Position numbers and translations under genes: made by a program. The notes beneath the pieces are model-generated. The model worked only from the letters and a program-made list of their open reading frames with translations, was not told the origin of the DNA and searched no databases. From Escherichia coli (GTDB lineage: Bacteria > Pseudomonadota > Gammaproteobacteria > Enterobacterales > Enterobacteriaceae), in NCBI RefSeq assembly GCF_024223415.1, contig NZ_CP100500.1: a stretch of 64,000 nt of DNA, one strand, 5' to 3'. Position 1 is the stretch's first letter. Every line of letters begins with the position of its first letter. Of the stretch, positions 48,350-49,760 are shown one piece after another.

Positions 48350-48398
48350 CTGATTAAACAGGGAAGTTAAACATTAAAATTGAATGGATTTTCAATGA

Positions 48399-48436
48399 AC
48401 TGTAGGCCGGATAAGGCGTTTACGCCGCATCCGGCA
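48399..48436. repeat. REP unit downstream of epmB, bracketed by 16-bp direct repeats at 48353..48368 and 48468..48483
   Basis: ctgtaggccggataaggcgtttacgccgcatccggcaag; flanking attaaacagggaagtt occurs twice. Confidence 0.6.
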
Positions 48437-48698
48437 AGAGCAACCAACGCAAGTACAGCAACCTGCCATTAAACAGGGAAGTTTAATCTTTGCCCGTTGC
48501 ATAACCTTTAATTATTCATATACATTGCTGTTGTTACTCTTTATATAGCTAACACCAATAATTAACCTTTCTTTTCTGTTTATATAGAGTGAGCACGGCT
48601 ACTTATGTTATTTTAACAACTATTATTACCAAGCCCATTCATCTGGCTTATAAATTAAAATTAATTATTTAATTGAGAAATGGTTAGGGAGAACCTAC

Positions 48699-49568
48699 AT
48701 GGCCATAAGCATCAAGGGTGTTAATACCGGTGTTATTCGCAAGAGTAATAATTTCATTGCACTGGCGCTGAAAATTAAGGAACCTCGCAATAAAGAATCG
48801 TTGTTCTTTATGTCTGTCATGGAACTGCGCGACCTGCTGATTGCGCTGGAAAGTCGTCTGCATCAAAAGCATAAACTGGATGCTGCTACACGCCTTCAGT
48901 ATGAGCAAGCTCGCGATAAAGTCATTAAGAAAATGGCAGAAAATATCCCAGAAATTCTGGTTGATGAGCTTAAAAATGCCGATATTAATCGTCGGGTTAA
49001 CACGCTGGAACTTACCGATAATCAAGGCGAAAATCTTACCTTCGTATTAACGCTACATGACGGTAGCAAATGTGAGTTAGTCGTCAATGAGTTGCAGATT
49101 GAAATGCTGGCGCGAGCAATCATTCATGCAATTAATAATGCAGAAATGCGCGAACTGGCATTACGTATTACCTCACTGTTAGATTTCCTGCCGTTATACG
49201 ACGTTGACTGCCAGGAAAATGGCAATCTGGAATATGACACCTATTCCCAACCGGAATGGAAACATAACTTGTTCGACCATTATCTGGCGGTGCTTTACCG
49301 CTTTAAAGATGAAAGTGGCAAAGAACAATTTAGCGGCGCAGTGGTGAAAACGCGTGAAGCAACGCCGGGTAAAGAAATAGAGGCGATCACTCGCCGAATG
49401 CTTGATTTCAGCCCACGACTGAAAAAACTCGCGGGTGTGCCATGTCAGGTCTATGTTCGCACCGTAGCGGCGAATAACGCCCAACCGCTAACCCAGGATC
49501 AATGCTTACGCGCGCTGCATCACTTACGTGTTCAATCCACCAGCAAAACTGCACCACAGGCGAAATAA
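48699..49568 (+). CDS. yjeJ: uncharacterised protein YjeJ
   Basis: ORF 289 aa MAISIKGVNTGVIRKSNNFIALALKIKEPRNKESLFF...; AT-rich gene with a very AT-rich ~220-bp leader. Confidence 0.85.
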   Translation: MAISIKGVNTGVIRKSNNFIALALKIKEPRNKESLFFMSVMELRDLLIALESRLHQKHKLDAATRLQYEQARDKVIKKMAENIPEILVDELKNADINRRVNTLELTDNQGENLTFVLTLHDGSKCELVVNELQIEMLARAIIHAINNAEMRELALRITSLLDFLPLYDVDCQENGNLEYDTYSQPEWKHNLFDHYLAVLYRFKDESGKEQFSGAVVKTREATPGKEIEAITRRMLDFSPRLKKLAGVPCQVYVRTVAANNAQPLTQDQCLRALHHLRVQSTSKTAPQAK

Positions 49569-49636
49569 TCTCATCTTTGCTAATGCGAGGCTGGAGCCAT
49601 CCAGCCTGAAATGACTGATAACGTGATCGTTGGTCA

Positions 49637-49732
49637 TGCCGGATGCGGCGTAAACGCCTTATCCGGCCTACAAATTCTCAAGCATTCAATCAGTTGCAAT
49701 GCCTTATGTAGGCCTGATAAGCGAAGCGCATC
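49637..49732. repeat. REP pair (BIME-like) between yjeJ and yjeI
   Basis: tgccggatgcggcgtaaacgccttatccggcctaca and gccttatgtaggcctgataagcgaagcgcatc. Confidence 0.6.
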
Positions 49733-49760
49733 TGGCAATTATACGTTTGTCACCATCACA

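Follow-up and report, generated by a model that had tools for sequence, protein, structure and literature searches.

yjeJ of Escherichia coli, a vertically inherited gene and probable relic of an AT-rich microcin island, with REP elements as secondary insertions

The gene yjeJ of Escherichia coli is considered here as it lies between epmB and yjeI in a 64,000-nucleotide stretch of contig NZ_CP100500.1 (assembly GCF_024223415.1), referred to below as the window, the DNA of which is 100% identical to that of strain S51. An original prediction made from the letters alone took the gene for an old horizontally acquired insert, probably silenced by the nucleoid protein H-NS and bracketed by repetitive extragenic palindromic (REP) elements. 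H-NS-silenced xenogeneic islands do resemble it in that yjeJ is AT-rich relative to the flanking core genes and is placed between them; unlike such islands, yjeJ is near-universal in E. coli, syntenic across genera and free of mobility genes, its protein has been detected and in vitro selection left no H-NS mark on its spacer.

Two other described systems come close. Class II microcin loci of the MccV, MccS and MccPDI type comprise a precursor, an immunity protein, a membrane-fusion protein and an ATP-binding cassette (ABC) exporter with a C39 peptidase, and clusters in Klebsiella, Kosakonia, Budvicia and Entomohabitans likewise have 108–122-aa double-glycine precursors, a fusion protein and a C39 ABC exporter, but differ in that no small membrane immunity gene is seen, the last gene of the operon encodes a conserved, soluble YjeJ-like protein of some 280 aa, and fimbrial genes form a further operon upstream. 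Orphan immunity or relic genes of bacteriocin loci are comparable to yjeJ as single genes kept under purifying selection at a former or alternative toxin-export site; unlike the known microcin immunity proteins, YjeJ lacks membrane character, and an immunity role would be suggested by association. Taking these comparisons together with the evidence below, we consider it probable (roughly 0.6) that yjeJ is the vertically inherited solitary counterpart, and probably the relic, of an AT-rich microcin island, and that the REP elements around it are secondary.

The island that ends in a YjeJ-like gene

Distant YjeJ relatives (25–32% identical) were traced to their genomes. A conserved cluster that closes with the YjeJ-like gene, 12–30 bp past the exporter gene, recurs in six lineages: K. 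grimontii, K. pneumoniae, Entomohabitans, a Scandinavium-like genome, Kosakonia radicincitans and Budvicia. The cluster opens with chaperone-usher fimbrial genes, followed by one to four open reading frames (ORFs) of 78–122 aa, a gene for an HlyD-like membrane-fusion protein, the ABC exporter (with Pfam matches to Peptidase_C39, ABC_membrane and ABC_tran) and finally the YjeJ-like gene. The small ORFs have double-glycine leaders (MKELSVFEMxxISGG type; MKELSVFEMNEIAGG followed by YSW) and Gly-rich hydrophobic cores, features by which they are identified as putative class II microcin precursors, and the precursor, fusion protein and C39 exporter that make up a class II microcin cluster are all present in the Klebsiella-type island.

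In Klebsiella and Entomohabitans the cluster fills the very slot between epmB and yjeI that yjeJ occupies in E. coli; its fimbrial, microcin and exporter genes, together with the YjeJ-like gene, take up about 11.7 kb there in Klebsiella. Because the whole island of K. grimontii sits exactly between epmB and yjeI, E. coli yjeJ is positionally equivalent to the last gene of the island. The arrangement was found in all eight distinct contexts of the ubiquitous YjeI protein in K. pneumoniae, a species in which microcin matches are reported from nearly 100% of assemblies (Cole et al. 2022, PMC9746304). In Kosakonia and Budvicia the cluster occupies other, unrelated chromosomal sites and still carries the YjeJ-like gene, an indication that gene and island move together. 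The island genes have a GC content of 0.37–0.47 against 0.54–0.58 for their flanks.

Several features of individual islands were recorded along the way. Two to four tandem microcin precursor paralogues are present in Klebsiella islands (L076 12512-13963, L054 1692-2492), one of them a distinct 78-aa type with the leader MKRLTNEEMGQIEGG, and several score below threshold against Pfam DUF5862. Some K. pneumoniae strains (L071, L072, L073) show insertion sequences (IS) or truncation in the exporter gene, the fusion-protein gene or the microcin region, with the YjeJ-like gene intact. The K. pneumoniae cluster was searched for a classical immunity gene in the form of a small membrane ORF, with none found, and none of the papers searched links yjeJ to microcins.

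The explanation that we favour may be put as follows. yjeJ would be a real, expressed and selectively maintained gene, inherited vertically in the slot between epmB and yjeI since before Escherichia, Citrobacter, Kluyvera, Kosakonia and Pluralibacter split, and would correspond, as a solitary gene, to the one that ends an AT-rich island made up of a regulator, chaperone-usher fimbriae, one or more class II microcin precursors, a membrane-fusion protein, a C39-peptidase ABC exporter and the YjeJ-like gene. Most probably the E. coli gene is what remained after the rest of such an island had been lost. In the islands the gene directly follows that of the exporter, in the same orientation, and is likely to be co-transcribed with it, and the protein, apparently soluble and cytoplasmic, would most likely act in self-protection against the exported microcin or in handling of its precursor, which is the weakest step.

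Of the points that weigh against this explanation, the first is that tblastn with the island proteins detected no trace of the microcin, the fusion protein or the exporter, whether in the window or at any slot-type locus, and consequently the window locus itself, having no export genes by this search, does not qualify as a class II microcin cluster, and the order of events (relic of an island, or seed of one) rests on the family tree. Copies of the family also occur without an exporter on plasmids of 38–56 kb in Serratia, and the slots surveyed include none from Enterobacter, Cronobacter or families other than Enterobacteriaceae. The remaining points concern the protein. Members of the family are 276–289 aa long and have no transmembrane segment (maximum KD19 ≤1.76), whereas the verified microcin immunity proteins are all membrane proteins of at most 216 aa (PMC12219008); in the islands, moreover, the gene follows that of the exporter instead of lying beside the precursor. 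In addition, the E. coli protein is basic (isoelectric point, pI, 8.3) and the island types are acidic (pI 5–6), and the two may not share a function.

In a neighbour-joining, midpoint-rooted tree without support values, slot-type YjeJ forms one clade whose topology is roughly that of the species, and the island and plasmid types branch deeper. The same material can be arranged in the opposite order, with solo yjeJ as an ancestral core gene of Enterobacteriaceae, AT-rich through weak codon selection and fast evolution, upstream of which the clusters were later inserted or from which they took copies, in which case the association would say little about function. The single, species-like slot clade and the lack of exporter relics agree with this order, the number of synonymous substitutions per site (dS) of yjeJ (0.75, vs 0.31–0.43 for its neighbours) fits weak codon constraint, and the Scandinavium-like locus L056, in which the island is followed by a GerE regulator and then by a separate slot-type yjeJ, indicates that islands can land beside a resident copy. 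It is harder to reconcile with the clusters of Kosakonia and Budvicia, which carry the YjeJ-like gene as their last gene at unrelated sites, with a gap to the exporter gene that stays at 12–30 bp in six lineages, and with the deeper branching of the island and plasmid types, and we hold it to be a serious but rather unlikely possibility.

Inheritance, composition and expression of yjeJ

Of 5426 complete E. coli genomes, 5390 carry yjeJ. Other species were surveyed by a pattern-based scan of one genome per species, seeded with a six-sequence alignment, which returned 45 loci; none came from S. enterica or S. bongori, and because recovery by such a scan hinges on peptide patterns, nothing follows from its failure to return S. 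enterica, Enterobacter and others. In 43 of the 45 loci efp, epmB, yjeJ and yjeI stand in one order, and the efp-epmB-yjeJ-yjeI-groL slot is kept in at least 14 genera of Enterobacteriaceae, including Escherichia, Citrobacter, Pseudocitrobacter, Kluyvera, Salmonella, Superficieibacter, Trabulsiella, Yokenella, Intestinirhabdus, Kosakonia, Phytobacter and Pluralibacter; Atlantibacter has the gene order of the E. coli slot as well. Across the 43 loci the identity of YjeJ falls from 97% to 40%, compared with 83–98% for EpmB and 73–100% for YjeI. The ratio of nonsynonymous to synonymous substitution rates (dN/dS) of yjeJ, 0.04–0.05 against E. albertii and E. whittamii, indicates purifying selection, and by these sequence measures yjeJ is fast-evolving yet constrained. 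The same ratio rules out a pseudogene in Escherichia.

Exceptions to this pattern were seen in single lineages. In Salmonella diarizonae yjeJ has an in-frame stop at codon 98 (L030 5001-5858) and in S. arizonae its N-terminus is disrupted (L044 4997-5842), and both look like pseudogenes; in one complete genome, that of E. coli strain 98203 (hit H61), the gene is split by IS1. The neighbourhood from epmB through yjeI to groL accepts insertions: in Kosakonia and Phytobacter a 572-aa methyl-accepting chemotaxis-type gene stands between yjeJ and yjeI (L038 5968-7686; L040, L049), in C. youngae (L014) about 2 kb separate epmB from yjeJ and about 3 kb separate yjeI from groL, and in K. sichuanensis (L029) the latter distance is about 2.6 kb. 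Three contigs labelled Bacillus coahuilensis, Bacteroidales (a metagenome-assembled genome) and Chryseobacterium (L005, L019, L047) hold enterobacterial yjeJ loci at 98–99% or 41% identity and probably reflect contamination or mislabelling in public assemblies.

The original prediction was right that yjeJ and its leader are AT-rich relative to their neighbours. The GC content of the gene is 0.452 (as is that at third codon positions, GC3), compared with 0.530 for epmB, about 0.56 for yjeI, 0.532 for groL and 0.518 for the window, which makes it the third-lowest of 57 ORFs and places it within the lowest 6.7% of 870-bp windows, so that the coding sequence (CDS) is a moderate compositional outlier only. 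The leader of 229 bp, at 29.7% GC, falls in the lowest 0.04% of windows of that length and is the most AT-rich stretch of its size in the window. Elsewhere in the window, stretches as AT-rich as the gene or its leader occur at 10659-13935, 3576-3946 and 30600-30829, and two ORFs, at 11149-11547 (GC 0.436) and 12992-13393 (GC 0.383), are more AT-rich than yjeJ.

The low GC content is not peculiar to E. coli. In 42 of the 43 slot loci yjeJ lies below its neighbours, with a mean difference of 7.2 points, its GC3 varies with the GC3 of the host genes across the 43 loci (r = 0.81), and the leader has a GC content of 0.25–0.38 in most genera. Because the gene is low in GC nearly everywhere and its GC3 tracks the host, the AT-richness is a stable offset, common to the island genes, and not foreign DNA still drifting towards host composition or a sign of recent import. 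The prediction was to be abandoned if the composition proved uniform and the gene vertically present across the family; syntenic, vertical presence across at least 14 genera was found, and the composition differs from that of the neighbours. As for acquisition itself, a distant foreign origin is plausible, because the slot elsewhere carries an AT-rich accessory island and family members occur on Serratia plasmids, but neither patchy presence nor mobility-marked boundaries were seen: nearly all E. coli genomes have the gene, the syntenic genera number at least 14 and the REP elements vary independently of it.

Silencing by H-NS finds no support and is not needed to explain anything seen here, which leaves it unsupported rather than disproved. 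H-NS prefers AT-rich sequence such as the yjeJ leader. In genomic SELEX (systematic evolution of ligands by exponential enrichment), an in vitro method, the yjeJ spacer was not marked for H-NS and was found to contain an RpoD-holoenzyme site, with the promoter elements TTAACC (48562-48567) and TAGAGT (48585-48590) 17 nt apart (PMC3946193). YjeJ protein has been quantified by proteomics in LB medium (PMC9508795) and yjeJ is listed as Nac-regulated (PMC7417836). An alignment of leaders from several genera shows that the promoter-like motif TTATGTTATTTTAAC (48603-48617), which is TGTGCTATTTTAAC-like, and the ribosome-binding context ATGGTTAGGGAGAACC (48680-48695) are kept across genera.

REP elements and layout of the locus

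REP elements and bacterial interspersed mosaic elements (BIMEs) of E. coli are extragenic sequences at gene ends, present in hundreds of copies, and the elements in the window share their consensus, hairpin, position and inverted pairing across a 34-nt linker. They do stand on both sides of yjeJ, as had been noticed from the sequence, one upstream and two downstream (Table 1). Both canonical copies are imperfect palindromes of about 35 nt with stable hairpins, of −20.9 kcal/mol (z −4.3) upstream and −21.3 kcal/mol (z −5.7) downstream, and match the consensus without mismatch at 48402-48418 and 49655-49671; the third, degenerate and inverted, matches with 3 mismatches, has a hairpin z of −0.6 and forms a BIME-like pair with the second. 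The window contains six matches to the consensus where 0.28 would be expected, half of them flanking yjeJ, all copies are in spacers, and the REP query has a median of at least 38 matches per E. coli genome. As REP elements those around yjeJ are ordinary; what is notable is their polymorphism and the direct repeat at the upstream insert.

On either side of that 115-bp upstream insert stands one copy of a near-perfect direct repeat (16–19 nt, ATTAAACAGGGAAGTT), whereas REP-less strains carry a single copy. A duplication of this length is longer than expected from mobilisation of the IS200/IS605 type, that is, by REP-associated tyrosine transposases (RAYT). The left copy starts just past the epmB stop codon, and weaker similarity further to the left extends as far as the end of epmB. 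The downstream insert measures about 150 bp. MG1655 has a full inverted REP pair at either site, with a further 45-bp REP upstream and a CAGCCT duplication flanking the downstream element. Compared with the MG1655-like locus L002, the downstream BIME of the window strain is missing 10 bp (CAGCCTCTGG) from its right edge (49737-49750), which removes one copy of the CAGCCT flanking repeat.

The reading with which the analysis began, that of a horizontally acquired cassette with its limits marked by the REP elements and its expression silenced by H-NS, can draw on the AT-rich CDS and leader, the latter being of the sequence type that H-NS is generally known to prefer, on a 73-nt inverted repeat of 79% complementarity formed around the gene by the REPs and linker motifs (48372-48444 vs 49629-49701), and on the short duplications that flank both REP inserts. 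The distribution of the elements speaks against it. E. coli LH85-a and SCU-204 have an intact yjeJ with no REP on either side, in spacers of 234 and 49 bp, and such REP-less alleles rule out the inverted segments as a composite transposon. Among 59 evenly sampled E. coli chromosomes about 47% have REPs on both sides and about 32% (some 19) have none, O157:H7 genomes are without the upstream 115-bp insert only, and in Kluyvera, Salmonella, Trabulsiella and most other genera yjeJ has no flanking REPs; among the sampled species upstream REPs are confined to Escherichia, with none in E. albertii or in the REP-less E. coli strains.

Because REP-less alleles keep yjeJ and the upstream and downstream inserts vary separately, the REP/BIME elements are later, independent insertions into two spacers, polymorphic within E. 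coli, and do not mark the boundaries of an acquisition. Together with the synteny in at least 14 genera, the RpoD site in a spacer not flagged for H-NS and the protein found in LB, this makes the cassette reading very improbable. Bracketing by REPs is no evidence of horizontal transfer, and compositional offsets can last across many genera. REPs and a mildly AT-rich y-gene had both been annotated before, and the observation from which the analysis started is in this respect an ordinary one.

The local gene order is blc, sugE, ecnBA, efp(-), epmB(+), yjeJ(+), yjeI(-), groL(-) and groS(-). The right-hand neighbour had been given as groL, yjeI having been overlooked; the latter adjoins yjeJ or a YjeJ-like gene in every slot locus. 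The hairpin between the two genes is kept in alleles both with and without downstream REPs. Further away, a guanidine-II (mini-ykkC) riboswitch (46116-46162, minus strand, 50.4 bits) lies upstream of sugE/gdx, which is a known arrangement.

Table 1. Features of the yjeJ locus, with coordinates in the window.
Feature	Coordinates	Strand	Description	Basis
epmB	47321..48349	+	core gene, left border of slot	ORF list; RefSeq annotation of S51
Direct repeat, left copy, ATTAAACAGGGAAGTT(A/T)AA	48353..48371	+	19 nt, 95% identity, spacing 115; one copy in REP-less alleles	
REP-containing segment between direct-repeat copies	48372..48467	+	REP core 48401-48436; repeat spacing 115 bp	
Direct repeat, right copy	48468..48486	+		repeat search; allele comparison
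AT-rich yjeJ leader	48470..48698	+	GC 0.297	composition; RpoD SELEX promoter; cross-genus leader alignment
yjeJ CDS	48699..49568	+	289 aa, PF15922, soluble, predicted alpha/beta repeat fold	
GC-rich hairpin between yjeJ and yjeI, likely terminator	49588..49607	.		fold −15.0 kcal/mol, z −4.35
Downstream BIME-like element	49637..49737	.	REP 49637-49672, 34-nt linker, inverted degenerate REP 49707-49737	
yjeI	49761..50114	-	DUF4156 lipoprotein, core gene, right border of slot	

Predicted fold and possible role of YjeJ

YjeJ is uncharacterised but not an orphan. It had been described as an orphan with no recognisable domain, a description which gives way to a full-length match to Pfam PF15922, 'YjeJ-like' (E 2.6e-174, 578.6 bits against a cut-off of 27, residues 1-283 of 283), and to homologues in many genera. 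The family is small, an exhaustive HMMER search yielding only 97 clusters at 50% identity. In family libraries there was no match in PADLOC or NCBIfam and noise only in PHROGs, the family sequence profile matched no PDB chain, and Foldseek against BFVD gave no significant match.

The AlphaFold2 (AF2) model of YjeJ (pLDDT 93, pTM 0.88) suggests a fold resembling that of PUR/Whirly proteins, with weak support from Foldseek, which against PDB returned PURA entries at a probability of 0.5–0.7, all E-values being above 0.05 and TM-scores low. Compared with the beta-beta-beta-beta-alpha repeat proteins of the PUR-alpha and Whirly-like type, YjeJ has extra helices and no sequence similarity. The resemblance allows a different role, in which YjeJ is a nucleic-acid-binding protein with repeats of this type (a regulator, or a factor binding RNA or single-stranded DNA) that has nothing to do with immunity, controlling fimbrial or microcin expression in the islands and serving a housekeeping or stress function in E. 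coli. Besides the confident model and the PURA entries, the basic character of the E. coli protein and the reported regulation by Nac are in keeping with it; the Foldseek statistics, the acidic island-type members and the lack of any PDB chain matching the family profile by sequence are not, and some proteins with this fold do not bind nucleic acids. We regard such a role as unlikely.

Returning to the microcin island, the candidate roles for YjeJ, suggested by its place in the cluster, would be self-protection against the microcin or handling of its precursor, and this remains the weakest step of the explanation. Published immunity screens left out proteins of more than 250 aa or more than 216 aa (the latter in PMC12219008) and expected membrane proteins, and would for these reasons have missed the YjeJ family. 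It is conceivable, and we offer it as a tentative proposal with the odds against it, that PF15922 is an unrecognised fourth component of widespread fimbria-linked class II microcin loci, either a soluble, PUR-like cytoplasmic protector against a Gly-rich microcin or a chaperone of the precursor, and that E. coli, Citrobacter and their relatives keep the orphan yjeJ as a shield against the microcins of Klebsiella-type neighbours.

In conclusion, a by-product of this analysis is a testable hypothesis for an uncharacterised gene of E. coli K-12, which extends to an overlooked conserved gene in the near-universal microcin locus of K. pneumoniae and bears on how enteric bacteria tolerate each other's microcins.

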